From the sequence record OQ873415.1: a stretch of 64,000 nucleotides of DNA; one strand, given 5' to 3'. Of the stretch, positions 191 through 60,810 are shown in pieces. The translations under genes were made by a program, and so were the position numbers. This DNA is from Escherichia phage PECP20. The notes under the pieces are model-generated. The model was not told the origin of the DNA. It ran no database searches and saw nothing but the letters and a program-made list of their open reading frames with translations. Each line of letters opens with the position of its first letter. Within the stretch, counting starts at the first letter, position 1.

Positions 191-715
191 TCATTTTAGC
201 AAAATAAAATCAACTTGTTCTGCCAATGAACGTCTAAACATTAATTGACAACTTCCGAGGATGAAATCAGGTGCTTCATAGACCGCGATGTAGTATCCTT
301 TAGCTTTCAAGAGTTCAACATCCACCTGGTCATCAAACCATGCATAAACCGCGTCAACGCTTTCAAATCCAAAATAGAACCCTTGAGCCCAATCTTCACT
401 CAATTCAAATGTGTACTCAATTCTATGGTATCTTAAGATATTTTGTTCAAGAAGTTTGTCTTCATTTACTGTAGGACGATTAGGGACATTATAGTTGTCG
501 CCGTGATGGTAGAAGTTACCTGAGATTATTCCATGTTTATCAAGGAACTCCCATGTTTCTTCAGAGTTGTCAGTGCCAGACCAACCGTAAGGTGAGCGTG
601 GTTCTTTATTCCAAGAGGTTTCCCAAATTCTGACGGCTTTACCGTCTTCGATAGCAATTCCTGGTAATGATTCACGTTGAGTACAAAAACTACGTTCTAC
701 GCGGTAAACTAACAT
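191..715 (-). CDS. hypothetical protein (174 aa)
   Basis: Long minus-strand ORF in gene-dense early region; no recognisable motif. Confidence 0.6.
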   Translation of the reverse strand: MLVYRVERSFCTQRESLPGIAIEDGKAVRIWETSWNKEPRSPYGWSGTDNSEETWEFLDKHGIISGNFYHHGDNYNVPNRPTVNEDKLLEQNILRYHRIEYTFELSEDWAQGFYFGFESVDAVYAWFDDQVDVELLKAKGYYIAVYEAPDFILGSCQLMFRRSLAEQVDFILLK

Positions 716-774
716 ATTATTCTCCTCTGGTTAATATGGTTATAATATCAAAACCAGAGGAGAAGTAAACAACT

Positions 775-6188: not shown

Positions 6189-6770
6189 CTAAAAATTCAA
6201 CATTTTCAAATGAATGATTTTGTATAACCGAGATAAAGGGTCATATTCTAAGTCTTCAATTTCTACAATCTCAAATCTAGAGATACCTGAGACCATGTAT
6301 TCTTGTTCAGATTCAATCATATCTAGGACGTCAACACGTTTTTCTTCCATAACATGCTTAGGGTTCTTTCCGGCGAGTACAATGTTAACCATGTTTTGGT
6401 AGTAATCGAAAATGAACGGAGCATTCCTGAGACTAAGAATAGTGTACGTTTGATATTCCCAACTCCCAGAGAACTGTCTGGCCGTACCAAAGTCTGTTGT
6501 AAACGATGTTACTCGTCCAGGAGACCAATGGCATCCTACAGATAACAATGAAAGATGTTCTACTTCTTCTGGAGTTACACCACGGTAGAGTTCTACTGGT
6601 ACTGTAGAAGTCATATGCTTACGAACAAGACGGTCTAATTCATAGTGGAAATCTGGGTCTTCCTTATAATCAGTGCAAGCCCAGAGAATGTTTTGTTCTT
6701 GTTTAGTGAATTTATCATCAATTAGTGCTGCGAGATATTCGCGTTCTTGAAGTTCAGATTGACATGTCAT
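6189..6770 (-). CDS. modB: ADP-ribosyltransferase, ModA/ModB family
   Basis: 193 aa paralog of the previous ORF (YRG, TSFT, EQEY). Confidence 0.6.
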   Translation of the reverse strand: MTCQSELQEREYLAALIDDKFTKQEQNILWACTDYKEDPDFHYELDRLVRKHMTSTVPVELYRGVTPEEVEHLSLLSVGCHWSPGRVTSFTTDFGTARQFSGSWEYQTYTILSLRNAPFIFDYYQNMVNIVLAGKNPKHVMEEKRVDVLDMIESEQEYMVSGISRFEIVEIEDLEYDPLSRLYKIIHLKMLNF

Positions 6771-6986
6771 GATAGACCTCCATTTAAAGATAAGCCTATC
6801 ATAACACGAGAGGAGGGAATGTAAACTACTTTTTAAGCTTTCCTACTAAAGGTCCATCAGGGCCAGGTTGTTCTAACATGAATAACGATGCTTTAAAAAG
6901 CAATGTTAACCCTTTCACCATTCGATACCATGTCTCAAAGTCTTTTTCCTTGATTTCTAGTAAGAATTTCTCTTTAAATTTCTCTT

Positions 6987-8341: not shown

Positions 8342-8578
8342 TTAACCACTTACTGGTGTAGGGGTAAACATTGCAGCGTTCTTAGTACGCCAATCTGCTG
8401 CGTCAGTCACCACAGTAGTGTAAGCAGCTTTTTCAGACGGGAAAGTCTGATAATGAGAATCTGCAATCCGATGTTCGTTTGAATAAATCTCAAACGGAAC
8501 AGAAACTTCCATACCTTTAACTTCTTTGCCTTCACCAGCAGGATGCGTAAAGGTTTTGATGTTTACATAACCACCCAT
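8342..8578 (-). CDS. soc: small outer capsid protein Soc
   Basis: 78 aa; YVNIKTF...HYQTFPSEKAAY matches T4 Soc as recalled. Confidence 0.85.
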   Translation of the reverse strand: MGGYVNIKTFTHPAGEGKEVKGMEVSVPFEIYSNEHRIADSHYQTFPSEKAAYTTVVTDAADWRTKNAAMFTPTPVSG

Positions 8579-8609
8579 AATTAACTCCTTTGTTGTTTAA
8601 TTACAGGTG

Positions 8610-8617
8610 TATTTATA
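8610..8617 (-). promoter_or_regulatory. T4 late promoter core TATAAATA upstream of soc
   Basis: Plus-strand tatttata about 35 nt upstream of soc ATG. Confidence 0.5.
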
Positions 8618-13175: not shown

Positions 13176-13350
13176 TAATAAATGCTTTAACTAATGCATT
13201 GTTCACTTCAGCAAGTTGTACCGTAACCCACTCGATTTCTTCGCGATCACCTGATAATATGATATCTTTAGTGAACATCTCGCCGCTTTTAAACCAGCCA
13301 ATAAAAGTAACTTTAGTTAATTTGCTCATATTTCCTCGCAAAATGCCCAT
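13138..13350 (-). CDS. hypothetical protein (70 aa)
   Basis: ORF; partial overlaps with both neighbours. Confidence 0.45.
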   Translation of the reverse strand: MGILRGNMSKLTKVTFIGWFKSGEMFTKDIILSGDREEIEWVTVQLAEVNNALVKAFINDEKVFEADFRG

Positions 13351-13643
13351 TCAGCATGATAAACTGTAGCACCTTTAGTATCATTCATTTGAACTACATC
13401 TACCGGAGAAATTACTCGATAGAGACGTGGTTCACCTCCATAAGAGCGTGCTGCTCGTCCTGCGTAAATCTTTGCTAAACCGATATCTTCAGTAAAGAAT
13501 ACACGATTCAAGTTTTTCTTACGTCCGGTTTCAGACAGAACTCCTGTTTCTTCAGGAGGACAAAGCATGTTTTCGATTTTAGCTGAACTACTTGAACCGT
13601 GATAAAAAATCTTAAATTCTGCTTTACAATCGATGGTTTTCAT
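13326..13643 (-). CDS. hypothetical protein with HGS motif (105 aa)
   Basis: ORF preceded by promoter cassette; FYHGSSSS motif. Confidence 0.55.
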   Translation of the reverse strand: MKTIDCKAEFKIFYHGSSSSAKIENMLCPPEETGVLSETGRKKNLNRVFFTEDIGLAKIYAGRAARSYGGEPRLYRVISPVDVVQMNDTKGATVYHAEWAFCEEI

Positions 13644-13669
13644 TTTGTTCTCCAGTAGTTGATAGGTCT

Positions 13670-13698
13670 ATAATAACACAACTACTGGAGAAGTAAAC
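13670..13698 (-). promoter_or_regulatory. T4-type early promoter (GTTTAC-N17-TATTAT)
   Basis: Plus-strand ataata (13670-13675) and gtaaac (13693-13698); spacer carries 5' arm of an SD-sequestering inverted repeat. Confidence 0.45.
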
Positions 13699-14073
13699 TT
13701 AAAAACGTAATTTAGATATATCTGCGTTGATTTCGTTTTGGTTTGCGTCGTATGCAATTAAACGAACCGCTTTAGATGGGTCATTCAATGCATAGAAATG
13801 ATGGAACATTGCTCGAACGATATCACCATTTACGAGTTCTACCTGGATAGGAGAACCTTTTTCGAGTTGGAAATGTTCATAAGCTTTGATGGTTCGCAGA
13901 TAATCAAGTTTTTGATTTCCAGCTCCAACTATTTGTACGATACGTTTGCCCATGTTTTCCATACGAGATACAATAGTTTTAGGAGCAAGAATAACGTAGG
14001 TTGCCAGTGGAGAAACTACTTCAACAGTTGTGTTTTCGGTGATTGCAGTAAAAATTGCTTGAGACATATTCAT
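13699..14073 (-). CDS. hypothetical protein (124 aa)
   Basis: ORF immediately downstream of gene 41. Confidence 0.6.
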   Translation of the reverse strand: MNMSQAIFTAITENTTVEVVSPLATYVILAPKTIVSRMENMGKRIVQIVGAGNQKLDYLRTIKAYEHFQLEKGSPIQVELVNGDIVRAMFHHFYALNDPSKAVRLIAYDANQNEINADISKLRF

Positions 14074-14139
14074 AATGTTTTCCTCTTGGTTGGTGTAAGT
14101 TCATCATATCATGCCTAGAGGAAGATGTAAACCCCGAAA

Positions 14140-14155
14140 GGAGACCGAAGTCTCC
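14140..14155 (-). terminator. UUCG-tetraloop hairpin just after gene 41
   Basis: Minus RNA GGAGAC-UUCG-GUCUCC then UUUCGGGG; followed by GTTTAC promoter-like hexamer. Confidence 0.4.
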
Positions 14156-40895: not shown

Positions 40896-40934
40896 GATAA
40901 ACCCTTACCTTAAATAGATAAGGGTATTTATAAT

Positions 40935-54296: not shown

Positions 54297-54755
54297 CTAG
54301 ATTTTAATCACTGCTTTAGAAGCTTTTCCTGGTAGTCGTTTACTGTTAATAATAGCCATTCTACATTGAAGAGTCTTCATTTTGAATGTTGGATTTTCGC
54401 GACAGACTGTAAGTCCTAACCAAAGATTTCCATCAGTTATTTCTAAACGGCCTGGGCGATATTCGACACCTTCGACAAAATCTTCATCAACATCTGGACG
54501 TGCCGGCATTGATAAAAATTCTGCAACTTCTTTAACATGATTTTTTACTTTATGAAATAATTCAAAAACGTAATTCTCATCTATTTCTCTCTGGATGGCG
54601 CGATCTAAGAGATGTTGAGAATACTTGATATGAAAGCCTGGTAGTCCAAAAGACTTTGCAGCATCTTTTATACCGGCATTTATTTTGCGGAACTCCGTTT
54701 CAAAGATTCGACGGAGTTTATTACGGCGGATAAAAACTTCCGAATTGATAGTCAT
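54297..54755 (-). CDS. regB: endoribonuclease RegB
   Basis: 152 aa; near-identical to T4 RegB as recalled (MTINSEVFIRRNKLRR...). Confidence 0.92.
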   Translation of the reverse strand: MTINSEVFIRRNKLRRIFETEFRKINAGIKDAAKSFGLPGFHIKYSQHLLDRAIQREIDENYVFELFHKVKNHVKEVAEFLSMPARPDVDEDFVEGVEYRPGRLEITDGNLWLGLTVCRENPTFKMKTLQCRMAIINSKRLPGKASKAVIKI

Positions 54756-54766
54756 TTTGATTTCTC

Positions 54767-54812
54767 CTCTAGTTGACAGGTCTATAGTAACACAACTAGA
54801 GGAGAAGTAAAC
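54767..54812 (-). promoter_or_regulatory. regB upstream region: early-type promoter plus SD-sequestering inverted repeat
   Basis: GTTTAC-N17-TACTAT; arms CCUCUAGUUG / CAACUAGAGG pair the GAGG of the SD; 5' arm lies in the promoter spacer. Confidence 0.45.
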
Positions 54813-57313: not shown

Positions 57314-57727
57314 TTAGTAAATTGATTTACCATAGTATTTGTACCAAGTCGGACGTTGAGCAATTTTTTCATCTAAGCGTGCTTGACTTATCGCAATGGA
57401 CACTTCGGACGGGACATAATTATTACGAAATTCGGCAGGAATGTCGGAAATATCCTGGACTGTCGTGTCCTTGATTTTGAAACCACGTTTCAAACATTCA
57501 GCGATTAGCTCGATTTGTCGTAAACGTAAAAATTCAAGTTTGTCGTAAAAGAATGTTACGTGACCTGTGCCTAAGATAAATGTTGGAGAGATTTTAAAAT
57601 CCTTTACACGTTTACCGTTTTGAACATGTTTACGGACTGCACCAAATACGCGTGGTAATTCACGATACTCAGCCATAAGATGTTGGTCGGACAGTTCAGA
57701 AACAAGTGTTAAATTGATACGAGTCAT
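57314..57727 (-). CDS. denV: endonuclease V (pyrimidine dimer DNA glycosylase)
   Basis: Near-identical to T4 DenV as recalled ([12 protein letters not shown]...); start at ATG 57727. Confidence 0.95.
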
Positions 57728-57785
57728 AATTTCCTCCAAGTAGTTGATGAATGTATAGTATCAAAACCCTTGGAGGAAGTAAACA

Positions 57786-58067
57786 CTATTTTTCTGAAGC
57801 GCCTGAAATATATTTTTCAAGACGTTGTTTCATCAGCGAGCCGTTCTTAGCGATTTCTTCTGGTTTATCGCACATACGCAACAAGGCTTCAAGCTTAGCG
57901 ATATCGCTGGTACGTTCAAATTTGCGAGTATCTATCTTACTAGCAAGTTCAGAAATACGTGCTAATAGACTTTCAGCTTCAACCAAAGCTGCACCTAGCT
58001 TAGTTGCAAATGTGTCAGTAGCTTCGTTAAGAATAGATTCTGATAAAAATTCACTATATGTTTTCAT
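57786..58067 (-). CDS. capsid internal protein with capsid targeting sequence
   Basis: ATG at 58067 gives [10 protein letters not shown]; ATGA overlap with lysozyme stop. Confidence 0.7.
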
Positions 58068-58552
58068 ATATACGCTTTCCAAGTTCCTGTTTTAAATGTT
58101 GAGATTACGCGTTTCGCGCGATTAGGTGTCTGACGATACCATTTAGATTGAGCTAGATTTACTGCCGCTTCATCCCAACGTTTCTGTTTAAGCATACGAA
58201 GAGAATTAGTAAAACCGGCGACTCCTGCTACACCCATTTGGAAGACCATATTGACCAATGCACACCGACGAACTGCATCTAAAGAATCATATACCGGTTT
58301 AAGTTTAGCATTACCCAAGATTCCGCGAACGGCTTTATCGACGTCTTCATTAAATAGCTTTTCAGCCTCATCAAGGGTAATTGTACCGTTGCATTTACGA
58401 CCGATCATTCTGTCAAGTTCAGCTTTAGCTACGGCTAAAGACTGGTTCTTTGTTACCAAGTGGCCTATGCCAATCGTCCAAAAGCCTTCAGTGTCTTTGT
58501 ATAAAGTCAGTCTAAGACCTTCGTCATTACGAAGCATTTCAAATATATTCAT
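58064..58552 (-). CDS. e: lysozyme (endolysin, T4 e type)
   Basis: [32 protein letters not shown] matches T4 lysozyme as recalled; start at ATG 58552. Confidence 0.95.
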
Positions 58553-58556
58553 AATA

Positions 58557-58576
58557 CCTCCCACGTTTATAGGAGG
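58557..58576 (-). promoter_or_regulatory. SD-sequestering hairpin upstream of lysozyme gene
   Basis: Minus RNA CCUCC-UAUAAACGU-GGGAGG, where GGGAGG is the SD 5 nt before ATG; TAATAAATA just upstream. Confidence 0.5.
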
Positions 58577-58586
58577 TATTTATTAC

Positions 58587-59045
58587 TTATAGGATGGTAG
58601 TGAGCACCTTATATAATGATTTGCCCATTACATATTCCCATTGAGAAGGTTTAATTAAAGCGAATGCATCAAATTCAGGAATCTGTCGTCCGTCTGGGAA
58701 TGTATGATAGGAATTACAAACACTGTTTCTGAATTGCTCGTGCTCTACAGGGATGGTATATAGGAACAGATGAATATTCTTATTATCTGAGTAATGATGT
58801 TCACCTAGGTCTTTCAGGAAGACAGGGTCATATTGTGTAAACCCAGTTTCTTCTTCGCATTCACGAATAGCGGCTTCAATAGGAGATTCGCCAGGTTCGA
58901 CATGGTCTTTAGGAATATCCCACCGATGAGCTAAAGAACCTTTAGGACGAGAACCAGTTACACGACCCATGAATAACTCTTTATCTTTTGTCATGAAGAT
59001 AATACCGGCTGATAGTTCTTTCACTTTATTTTTCTTACTCATCAT
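58587..59045 (-). CDS. nudE: Nudix hydrolase
   Basis: 152 aa; Nudix box GESPIEAAIRECEEETGF; position downstream of e as T4 nudE. Confidence 0.8.
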   Translation of the reverse strand: MMSKKNKVKELSAGIIFMTKDKELFMGRVTGSRPKGSLAHRWDIPKDHVEPGESPIEAAIRECEEETGFTQYDPVFLKDLGEHHYSDNKNIHLFLYTIPVEHEQFRNSVCNSYHTFPDGRQIPEFDAFALIKPSQWEYVMGKSLYKVLTTIL

Positions 59046-60446: not shown

Positions 60447-60752
60447 TTATTTTCCTCGACATTCTTTAATGAAATTTTCTAGATTGGTAGATTCAATAGC
60501 TTTTTTACGAGCTTCTGCGTGTTCTTCTTCAGACAATTTACATTTATAATTGACCCAGACGTTATGGTCGAAACTAGTCGTGGCATATAATAACAATGCT
60601 CCAACGAATAGCAAAAACGGCGATAAGAATACAAAACCAGGAACACCATCCATACTGTAAGCCTTTTGTAATACTGCAACAGAAAGAGCTGCGTAAAAAA
60701 GTGATACAAATATTGTTAAAAGACCAATTCGGTTGGTTTCGCCTAATTTCAT
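60447..60752 (-). CDS. membrane protein with C-terminal ENFIKECR motif (101 aa)
   Basis: Two TM helices; C-terminus LENFIKECRGK. Confidence 0.6.
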   Translation of the reverse strand: MKLGETNRIGLLTIFVSLFYAALSVAVLQKAYSMDGVPGFVFLSPFLLFVGALLLYATTSFDHNVWVNYKCKLSEEEHAEARKKAIESTNLENFIKECRGK

Positions 60753-60810
60753 AATATTCTCCTCATGTTTTAATAGGACTACTATAACATAGTCCTATCA
60801 GTTTGTACAC

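Follow-up and report, generated by a model that had tools for sequence, protein, structure and literature searches.

A hairpin directly upstream of ORF040c, on the minus strand of Escherichia phage PECP20, probably acts as a translation device that is specific for the promoter from which an RNA originates. The hairpin spans positions 13648..13692 of the 64,000-nucleotide stretch of record OQ873415.1 that was analysed (hereafter the window), and would form only in transcripts begun upstream of the ORF040c promoter. Its 3' arm contains the SD of the gene, and its 5' arm is part of the promoter spacer. The same arrangement precedes regB, where the pairing has been conserved across genera while the paired sequences have changed.

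Genomic context of the ORF040c hairpin

The window derives from an RB69-like Mosigvirus (Straboviridae) of the T4 type, with early genes on the minus strand; besides ORF040c it holds numerous small early genes together with regB, denV, e, soc, gene 49 and modB. Over 1.2 kb around the ORF040c hairpin, the sequence matches Escherichia phage CAU_ECP01 at 100% and RB69 at 98% identity. Downstream of gene 41, ORF040c is flanked by ORF041c and dmd, and its stop codon overlaps the dmd start. It encodes a small conserved protein with a homologue in 609 phage records; comparison with the Pfam family Arr-ms gave E = 0.06, and the product may, judging from its sequence, be ADP-ribosyltransferase-like.

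The upstream neighbour, ORF041c, has its own early promoter 430 nt upstream, which is the nearest source of readthrough RNA, and carries a weaker SD mask itself. Its TAA stop codon lies immediately next to the ORF040c -35 hexamer GTTTAC, and the terminator scan detected no terminator between ORF041c and the ORF040c hairpin. Among the orthologous loci examined, ORF041c is found between gene 41 and ORF040c only in Mosigvirus. Since a promoter-bearing ORF041c sits between the gene 41 terminator and ORF040c, readthrough into ORF040c appears unavoidable in this genus. The positions of these and related features are collected in Table 1.

Table 1 Positions of the ORF040c hairpin and related features in the window.
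Feature	Position	Strand	Details
ORF040c homologue	13326..13643	-	105 aa; AUG at 13643; ORF list, RB69 annotation
3' arm of ORF040c hairpin, CAACUACUGGAGAA	13648..13661	-	contains SD GGAG (13650..13653); A-rich up to AUG; from the fold
Predicted transcription start of ORF040c (A)	13663	-	7 nt after the -10, 2 nt upstream of the 3' arm
TGn extended -10 with hexamer TATTAT	13670..13678	-	forms the hairpin loop; sequence, promoter scan
5' arm of ORF040c hairpin, UUCUCCAGUAGUUG	13679..13692	-	anti-SD UUCUCC plus 8 nt; inside the 17-nt promoter spacer; 13692..13679 pairs with 13661..13648; from the fold
-35 hexamer GTTTAC, predicted early promoter of ORF040c	13693..13698	-	sequence, promoter scan, RB69 Pe:20537 (Nolan 2006)
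ORF041c with its own early promoter	13699..14132	-	CDS 13699..14073; -35 at 14127..14132; RB69 Pe:20971
regB CDS (RegB endoribonuclease)	54297..54755	-	annotation mapping; aligns with RegB of T4, JS10 and a Proteus phage
regB cassette	54762..54812	-	-35 GTTTAC 54807..54812; 17-nt spacer; -10 TACTAT 54784..54789
regB hairpin arms, UUCUCCUCUAGUUG and CAACUAGAGGAGAA	54806..54793 with 54775..54762	-	CAACUAGAGGAGAA holds the SD; from the fold
e hairpin, arms AAUACCUCCUAU and GUGGGAGGUAUU	58553..58580	-	masks SD of lysozyme gene e (CDS 58064..58552)
motB.2-region gene cassette (CDS 191..715)	720..770	-	GTTTAC, then UUCUCCUCUGGUU pairing with AACCAGAGGAGAA
denV cassette (CDS 57314..57727)	57731..57784	-	GTTTAC, then UUCCUCCAAG pairing with CUUGGAGGAA; RB69 Pe:64934
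modB variant (CDS 6189..6770)	6764..6826	-	TGn, -10 and discriminator pair with the SD-to-AUG stretch

Structure and promoter geometry

The ORF040c helix consists of 14 uninterrupted base pairs and encloses the whole SD, which in the fold is paired with upstream nucleotides with a probability of 1.00. The minimum free energy is -22.1 kcal/mol, as compared with -9.3 +/- 2.7 kcal/mol for shuffled sequences (z = -4.73). The initial annotation had proposed SD-pairing hairpins before ORF040c, regB and e, and all three were recovered on the minus strand where it had placed them, those of regB and e with energies of -21.6 kcal/mol (z = -4.45) and -16.3 kcal/mol (z = -4.37); at each of the three sites, none of 200 shuffles folded as well. 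The arms given for ORF040c, CCAGUAGUUG and CAACUACUGG, were correct and comprise 10 of the 14 pairs, the helix being longer than proposed.

The further proposal that the upstream arm lies within the promoter spacer at ORF040c and regB agrees with a 17-nt spacer in both cases and with promoters predicted independently in RB69. An HMM study of that phage (Nolan 2006) placed Pe:20537 before ORF040c and Pe:20971 before ORF041c, and also Pe:61376 before regB and Pe:64934 before denV. The ORF040c and regB promoters consist of GTTTAC, 17 nt and TATTAT or TACTAT, and the late-promoter motif TATAAATA is absent from both sites. The start of ORF040c transcription is predicted from this geometry and from the C-rich region at -3 to -1 of RB69 early promoters. 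RNAs starting after the -10 would lack the 5' arm, as had been proposed, and are predicted to be essentially unstructured, with folding energies of 0 and -1.6 kcal/mol for ORF040c and regB.

The 3' arm is not followed by a U-run (GGAGAACAAAAUG); the sequence downstream is CAAAAUG or AUCAAAAUG at ORF040c and regB. An intrinsic (Rho-independent) terminator was rejected on this ground and because terminator scans did not flag the site. A search against Rfam gave no match at the gathering score anywhere in the window, and at the ORF040c site only sub-threshold matches to generic hairpins (miRNA precursors).

The ORF040c and regB cassettes are paralogues

The two cassettes are identical at 46 of 51 positions and share a common geometry, in which UUCUCC and eight further nucleotides directly after the -35 pair with the SD GGAGAA and the eight nucleotides preceding it. 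The 51-nt pattern GTTTACTTCTCC-NN-TAGTTGTGTTAYTATAGACCTRTCAACTA-NN-GGAGAA has only these two matches in the window, where none is expected by chance. The stems differ solely by AG/CU versus UC/GA, that is, by two compensatory double changes that keep the pairing. At regB the TAG stop codon of the upstream gene overlaps the G of GTTTAC.

Covariation of the regB stem across genera

The regB hairpin is present in Mosigvirus, Tequatrovirus (T4), Dhakavirus (JS10), Gelderlandvirus (Proteus phage), Kanagawavirus (Enterobacter phage) and others, at least five genera in all, and in most of 31 distinct regB leaders from IMG/VR. The stem sequences differ among genera while the pairing persists, which excludes both chance and sequence-specific protein binding. 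A protein-binding palindrome was ruled out by the unconserved stem sequence, and a chance hairpin by the shuffles and the covariation.

Covariation was evaluated in a register-anchored alignment of the two arms, plain MAFFT having misaligned the SD columns; in the test of the inner stem only the SD and anti-SD cores served as anchors, and the inner stem was not fitted to the structure. Inner positions 1-5 were paired in 73-93% of 15 distinct arm pairs, and the contiguous inner helix averaged 4.9 bp, as compared with 1.8 bp in chimeras. Paired cells amounted to 81.4%, as opposed to 66.9 +/- 1.9% in shuffles and 45% in a wrong register, which serves as an unplanned negative control. Double-sided changes occurred at 11 of the 14 pairs, and the covariation score was 0.364 versus 0.121 in shuffles; none of 500 shuffles scored as high, and slid registers all remained at or below 0.11.

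Conservation of the ORF040c leader

The 14-bp ORF040c stem occurs in Mosigvirus only and is invariant there, so that orthologues provide no covariation for ORF040c; it was looked for and not found. Covariation of the arms across relatives, the lack of which the initial annotation had named as a refutation, is borne out at regB and not among ORF040c orthologues, and compensatory changes at ORF040c were seen only in the comparison with its regB paralogue. ORF040c leaders of JS98-like/Dhakavirus and Kanagawavirus-like phages have the form GTTTAC(A/T)TCTCC...GGAGA(A/T) with 5-7 bp, an anti-SD pairing that may not suffice for masking. In one lineage the pair has become CCTC/GAGG, and SP18-like phages have kept the 3' arm but have a terminator and a different promoter that comes without a 5' arm. 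Nothing comparable was found in the ORF040c leaders of distant phages, and a metagenome scan for leader variants returned identical Mosigvirus copies and one SP18-like copy, with no intermediate stems. The co-occurrence in Mosigvirus of the long mask and a promoter-bearing ORF041c, absent in the other lineages examined, is suggestive but a single case.

Other masked genes in the window

Three further early genes of the window have an SD that pairs with sequence of their own promoter. The motB.2-region gene and denV follow the ORF040c design, with hairpins of -21.7 kcal/mol (z = -4.96) and z = -3.45, respectively, whereas the modB hairpin (-20.2 kcal/mol) has a shifted geometry. In T4, regB, denV and motB.2 are preceded by the mask design and modB by its shifted form, so the masks are conserved at orthologous genes across genera. 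Masks with a GAGG SD and no GGAG precede the gene starts at 14073 and 37038. The loop of the e hairpin holds a late-promoter-like TATAAACG; the late-promoter boxes at e, TATAAGTA, AATAAATA and TATAAACG, are all imperfect.

The cost of freeing the ribosome site (SD-2 to AUG+3) was calculated for the long RNA and for the RNA from the own promoter. The opening energies were 18.7 versus 3.0 kcal/mol for ORF040c, 17.5 versus 3.1 kcal/mol for regB, 18.7 versus 5.1 kcal/mol for the motB.2-region gene starting at 715, 16.3 versus 4.8 kcal/mol for modB and 13.8 versus 3.9 kcal/mol for denV. Among 32 cassettes, ORF040c and regB show the two largest differentials.

Window-wide statistics

From the window, 33 cassettes consisting of an early promoter, SD, ATG and ORF were extracted. 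Duplexes between spacer and leader averaged -9.2 kcal/mol for cognate and -6.7 kcal/mol for chimeric combinations (permutation p = 2e-5), and the cognate pair ranked first in six cassettes, against an expectation of about one. Nine of the 33 cassettes carry an anti-SD (CTCC or CCTC) within their first 11 spacer nucleotides, as compared with 2.2% of random same-strand 11-mers (p = 3e-8). The anti-SD follows the type of its cognate SD, with GGAG accompanied by CUCC and GAGG by CCUC.

Promoter-spanning hairpins occur in many of the 33 cassettes. Those of class B, in which the spacer pairs with the -10 end and the +1 region, are equally significant (z from -3.6 to -4.9) and leave the SD free, and hairpins of this promoter-spanning kind must therefore have another role as well. 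Where at least 8 bp enclosed the -10 (91 cassettes), folding favoured the sense over the antisense strand in 60 cases and the antisense strand in 29 (p = 9e-5, an optimistic value as many of the 91 cassettes are related to one another). Helices contain G-U pairs, for example two in T4 regB. Together, the strand preference and the G-U pairs favour a role in the sense RNA. Masks were predicted to avoid promoters preceded by a terminator; the pooled odds ratio of 2.5 pointed in the opposite direction, in a set biased by the way loci were fetched, and the counts in the window alone (0 of 8 versus 2 of 25) carry no statistical power.

Comparison with known systems

The placement of a promoter within a hairpin has been textbook T4 biology since the work on lysozyme. 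Hairpins at ribosome binding sites with an internal promoter have been reviewed for T4 e, soc, 49 and I-TevI, including the e leaders of related phages (PMC3014915), and the mechanism has been proven for T4 e, with a 100-fold effect, and for I-TevI. The e hairpin of the window is the direct homologue of the T4 e hairpin, which was folded as well, and represents this published mechanism. The hairpins described here resemble that class in that long transcripts contain an upstream arm that pairs with the SD and/or AUG, and in that the promoter is placed so that its own transcripts, whose starts are predicted in the present case, lack the 5' arm. The initial annotation had equated the arrangement with that of T4 e and soc. 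As a mechanistic analogy this stands; the promoters differ. In the T4 genes the inner promoter is a late gp55 promoter (TATAAATA) and expression is silent early and on late, whereas ORF040c, regB, denV and the motB.2-region gene have an early sigma-70-type inner promoter (GTTTAC, 17 nt, TAnnnT), with the 5' arm in the spacer and the -10 in the loop. The masks of these four genes are thus additions to the known class of hairpins with a promoter inside, the inner promoter being early and not late.

A 2010 review of post-transcriptional control in T4 lists e, soc, 49 and I-TevI as the only cases of an inhibitory structure at a translation initiation region, and SD masking at an early promoter is mentioned in neither of the two T4 reviews from 2010 that were searched. 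No description of early-promoter SD masks was found in the RB69 genome paper, in T4 reviews or in the PeSL papers; the hairpins of T4 regB and denV may have been described earlier. For the T4 58-65 kb region, Valerie et al. (1986) reportedly noted possible stem-loops ahead of several ORFs.

The cassettes also resemble PeSLs (Arbiol 2010; Comeau 2014), which are repeated intergenic cassettes, often beside lineage-specific ORFs, that combine an AT-rich region and a sigma-70-like early promoter with a stem-loop, an SD and a start codon; the 51-nt cassette, with promoter, stem-loop, SD and start codon, occurs twice in the window. PeSL stem-loops, in contrast, have been interpreted as terminators and recombination substrates, and those of the T4/PST set are drawn upstream of the promoter, whereas in the window the SD itself forms the 3' arm, with no U-tract behind it. 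The words 'sequester' and 'translation' do not occur in the 2010 PeSL paper, and SD masking is unmentioned there.

The regB hairpin concerns the same gene and the same GGAG SD as RegB autoregulation. The known control is cleavage by RegB of the exposed SD of its own gene, in T4 and relatives, whereas the hairpin between spacer and SD would add a layer that acts on readthrough RNA. This hairpin, present in T4 and at least four other genera, is not described in the RegB literature examined. The literature places regB under an early promoter that is switched off after 2-3 minutes, with output tightly limited by strict post-transcriptional control, and T4 proteomics places RegB synthesis early. 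The regB mask fits this early and tightly limited production.

Proposed mechanism and alternative explanations

The proposed mechanism would operate as follows. RNA from the ORF040c promoter would have a 20-nt leader that carries the 3' arm only, leaving the SD single-stranded and the gene translated. RNA from upstream, made at the ORF041c promoter or by leakage through the gene 41 terminator, would contain both arms and form the 14-bp helix, and the SD would be hidden. Translation would thus be set by which promoter made the RNA. The same device would act before regB, denV and the motB.2-region gene and, with shifted geometry, before modB. Presumably, synthesis would thereby be confined to the brief firing of the gene's own early promoter, and at least RegB is toxic and tightly controlled. 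At ORF040c a simple temporal rationale is missing, as its own promoter and the nearest upstream promoter are both early.

It is less probable that the hairpin mainly serves mRNA stability, by keeping the intergenic GGAG of polycistronic RNAs double-stranded and so preserving the downstream cistrons (dmd; vs.1, vs and tk), with silencing being secondary. The substrate of RegB is GGAG in single-stranded form with A-rich sequence behind it, and secondary structure readily inhibits cleavage; 16 RegB-resistant GGAG sites of T4 lie in stable structures, and the SD of regB is itself cut by RegB. All strong masks in the window have a GGAG- or GAGG-type SD followed by A-rich sequence. However, masks also cover GAGG SDs that contain no GGAG, at 14073 and 37038, and protection would not require a position inside the promoter, which leaves the proximal transcript unprotected. 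Shielding is fully compatible with promoter-of-origin control as an additional consequence: RegB needs single-stranded GGAG, and hence the paired GGAG of long RNAs should resist it.

A PeSL-type insulator appears improbable. Here the stem-loop would mainly be an attenuator or terminator, halting RNA synthesis from upstream where it enters each promoter cassette, and a homology block for modular recombination, and its pairing with the SD would be incidental. The PeSL papers describe cassettes of a sigma-70-like promoter, stem-loop and SD and report terminator action of such stem-loops in RB49, where they mostly lie between -35 and -10 or over the -10; one PeSL stem-loop lowered lacZ expression as strongly as the rrnB T1 terminator. 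The paralogy of the ORF040c and regB cassettes, the standing of ORF040c and ORF041c as 'novel ORFs' relative to T4, and the class B hairpins, which do not touch the SD, would also suit such an element. Against it, the 3' arm lacks a U-run and the terminator scan was silent, while in many genera the helix is anchored on the SD and on an anti-SD whose position relative to the -35 is constant. The enrichment of anti-SDs in spacers argues in the same direction, as does their co-variation with the SD type, a property for which a mere terminator would have no use. The roles of terminator and mask are not mutually exclusive.

Translational coupling, by which ribosomes finishing the upstream ORF would open the helix and translation of the masked gene would scale with that of its neighbour, is very improbable. 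Only 6-7 nt do separate the upstream stop codon from the 5' arm, both at ORF040c (TAA of ORF041c) and at regB (TAG of the preceding gene), and the vs.3-regB arrangement of T4 is similar. A ribosome at the stop codon, however, reaches about 9-10 nt downstream and would be expected to open the outer 3-4 of the 14 bp with the GG of the SD still paired, and the proven T4 cases of such geometry are instances of silencing and not of coupling. Ribosomes terminating at the upstream stop could nevertheless partly open the helix.

Finally, a DNA-level element (a cruciform or recombination signal) or a by-product of cassette duplication without RNA function is hardly credible: the cassettes are repeated, recombination between PeSL cassettes is documented and the ORF040c stem is invariant within Mosigvirus, but stem sequences vary between genera with pairing kept, G-U pairs are present, the better folding of the sense strand points to RNA, and the ORF040c and regB paralogues differ by compensatory changes.

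Implications for T4-type phages

The promoter-of-origin device may, more tentatively, reflect a general grammar of T4-type phages. About one quarter of the sigma-70-type early promoters would then carry an anti-SD arm directly after the -35; regB, denV, modB, the motB.2-region genes and lineage-specific ORFs would be translated only from own-promoter RNA, and part of the PeSL 'terminator' stem-loops would be translational masks. Such a grammar, which we consider possible but somewhat short of probable, would tie protein synthesis to early-promoter activity and be one cause of the abrupt drop in early protein synthesis, which is so far only partly explained, and long RNAs would also be shielded from RegB. 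Stem-loops so far filed as terminators would thereby gain a testable alternative function.

If the masks work as proposed, the amounts of RegB, DenV, ModB and the ORF040c product would be set by initiation at one promoter and not by total mRNA. This would bear on the reading of discrepancies between phage RNA-seq and proteome data and on the annotation of 'operons' in T4-like genomes. In the engineering of therapeutic T4-like phages, the insertion of a cargo or of an upstream promoter would fail to express these genes.

Conservation of ORF040c and of the region upstream

ORF040c (13326..13643, minus strand), the focal gene, whose SD is predicted to be masked, encodes a protein of 105 amino acids that is conserved across 609 phage records, ranging from phages of Escherichia to those of Klebsiella, Acinetobacter, Aeromonas and Vibrio, whereas no homologue was found in T4. 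In Pfam it weakly resembles Arr-ms (rifampin ADP-ribosyltransferase), at an E value of 0.06 that falls under the cut-off, and a few GenBank records name the homologue 'ADP-ribosyl transferase'. ORF040c and the antitoxin gene dmd overlap, the stop codon of the first and the start of the second sharing the sequence ATGA.

A UUCG-tetraloop terminator (Table) lies immediately 3' of gene 41, adjoining the promoter of ORF041c, the upstream neighbour of ORF040c. Dhakavirus and Kanagawavirus-like phages do not carry ORF041c, and in them the ORF040c promoter is preceded by the same terminator module. Upstream of the orthologue in SP18-like phages (L061, L115, L119, L130), the 3' arm of the masking hairpin, CAACUACUGGAGAA, is identical, and the 5' arm is missing; a terminator and another -35 region stand in its place. 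Retention of one arm without the other shows that the two are separable in evolution.

Colinearity does not hold between the whole window and PQ572755 (L003, L004), the best match to it in GenBank: gene starts on the e-to-regB side are shifted by various amounts, among them +224, -45 and -13, and five annotated genes could not be placed. This disagreement indicates mosaic indels in the hyperplastic regions.

Hairpins and terminator in the window
Feature	Position	Strand
soc: perfect TATAAATA, then hairpin over AUG	about 8571..8617, start 8578	minus
Gene 49: perfect TATAAATA, then hairpin over SD region	about 40900..40932, start 40895	minus
Terminator GGAGAC-UUCG-GUCUCC-UUUC	14136..14155	minus
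modB hairpin, shifted geometry	6764..6826, upstream of modB (6189..6770)	minus
Promoter-spanning hairpins, free SD	gene starts 62316, 60752, 50652, 46489, 35907, 133	minus
Example of these	within 60746..60810	minus

Hairpins at late promoters and across early promoters

The soc and gene 49 hairpins correspond, in RB69-type form, to the controls known for soc and 49 in T4. Upstream of e (58553..58640, minus strand) the perfect late promoter TATAAATA is absent; this region has only TATAAGTA, AATAAATA and, within the hairpin loop, TATAAACG. T4 has two perfect late-promoter boxes at the equivalent place.

A second class of hairpin also extends across promoters; here the pairing partner of the spacer is the 3' portion of the -10 hexamer together with the +1 region (GAUAGGACUA with UAGUCCUAUC in the example tabulated). 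The stems comprise 10-13 bp (z -3.6 to -4.9), the SD is unpaired, and folding is better on the sense than on the antisense strand (p=4e-4). Formation would be restricted to readthrough RNA, begun upstream of the gene's own promoter. These hairpins resemble the RB49 PeSL (promoter-early stem-loop) structures 'overlapping the -10 box'.

The modB variant and counterparts in T4

At modB, the TGn, -10 hexamer and discriminator (GUGUUAUGAUAGGCU) pair with the SD-to-AUG stretch (-20.2 kcal/mol), and the 5' arm, as in the other masks, is upstream of the inferred transcription start. The arrangement is the same in T4 modB. Spacer anti-SD hairpins are found in T4 (58000-68000, L059; 1-50000, L133) at regB, denV, motB.2 and modB, and the predicted cost of opening the regB ribosome site is 17.4 kcal/mol in the long RNA versus 5.2 kcal/mol in the own-promoter RNA. 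The masking device is thus not confined to RB69-like phages.
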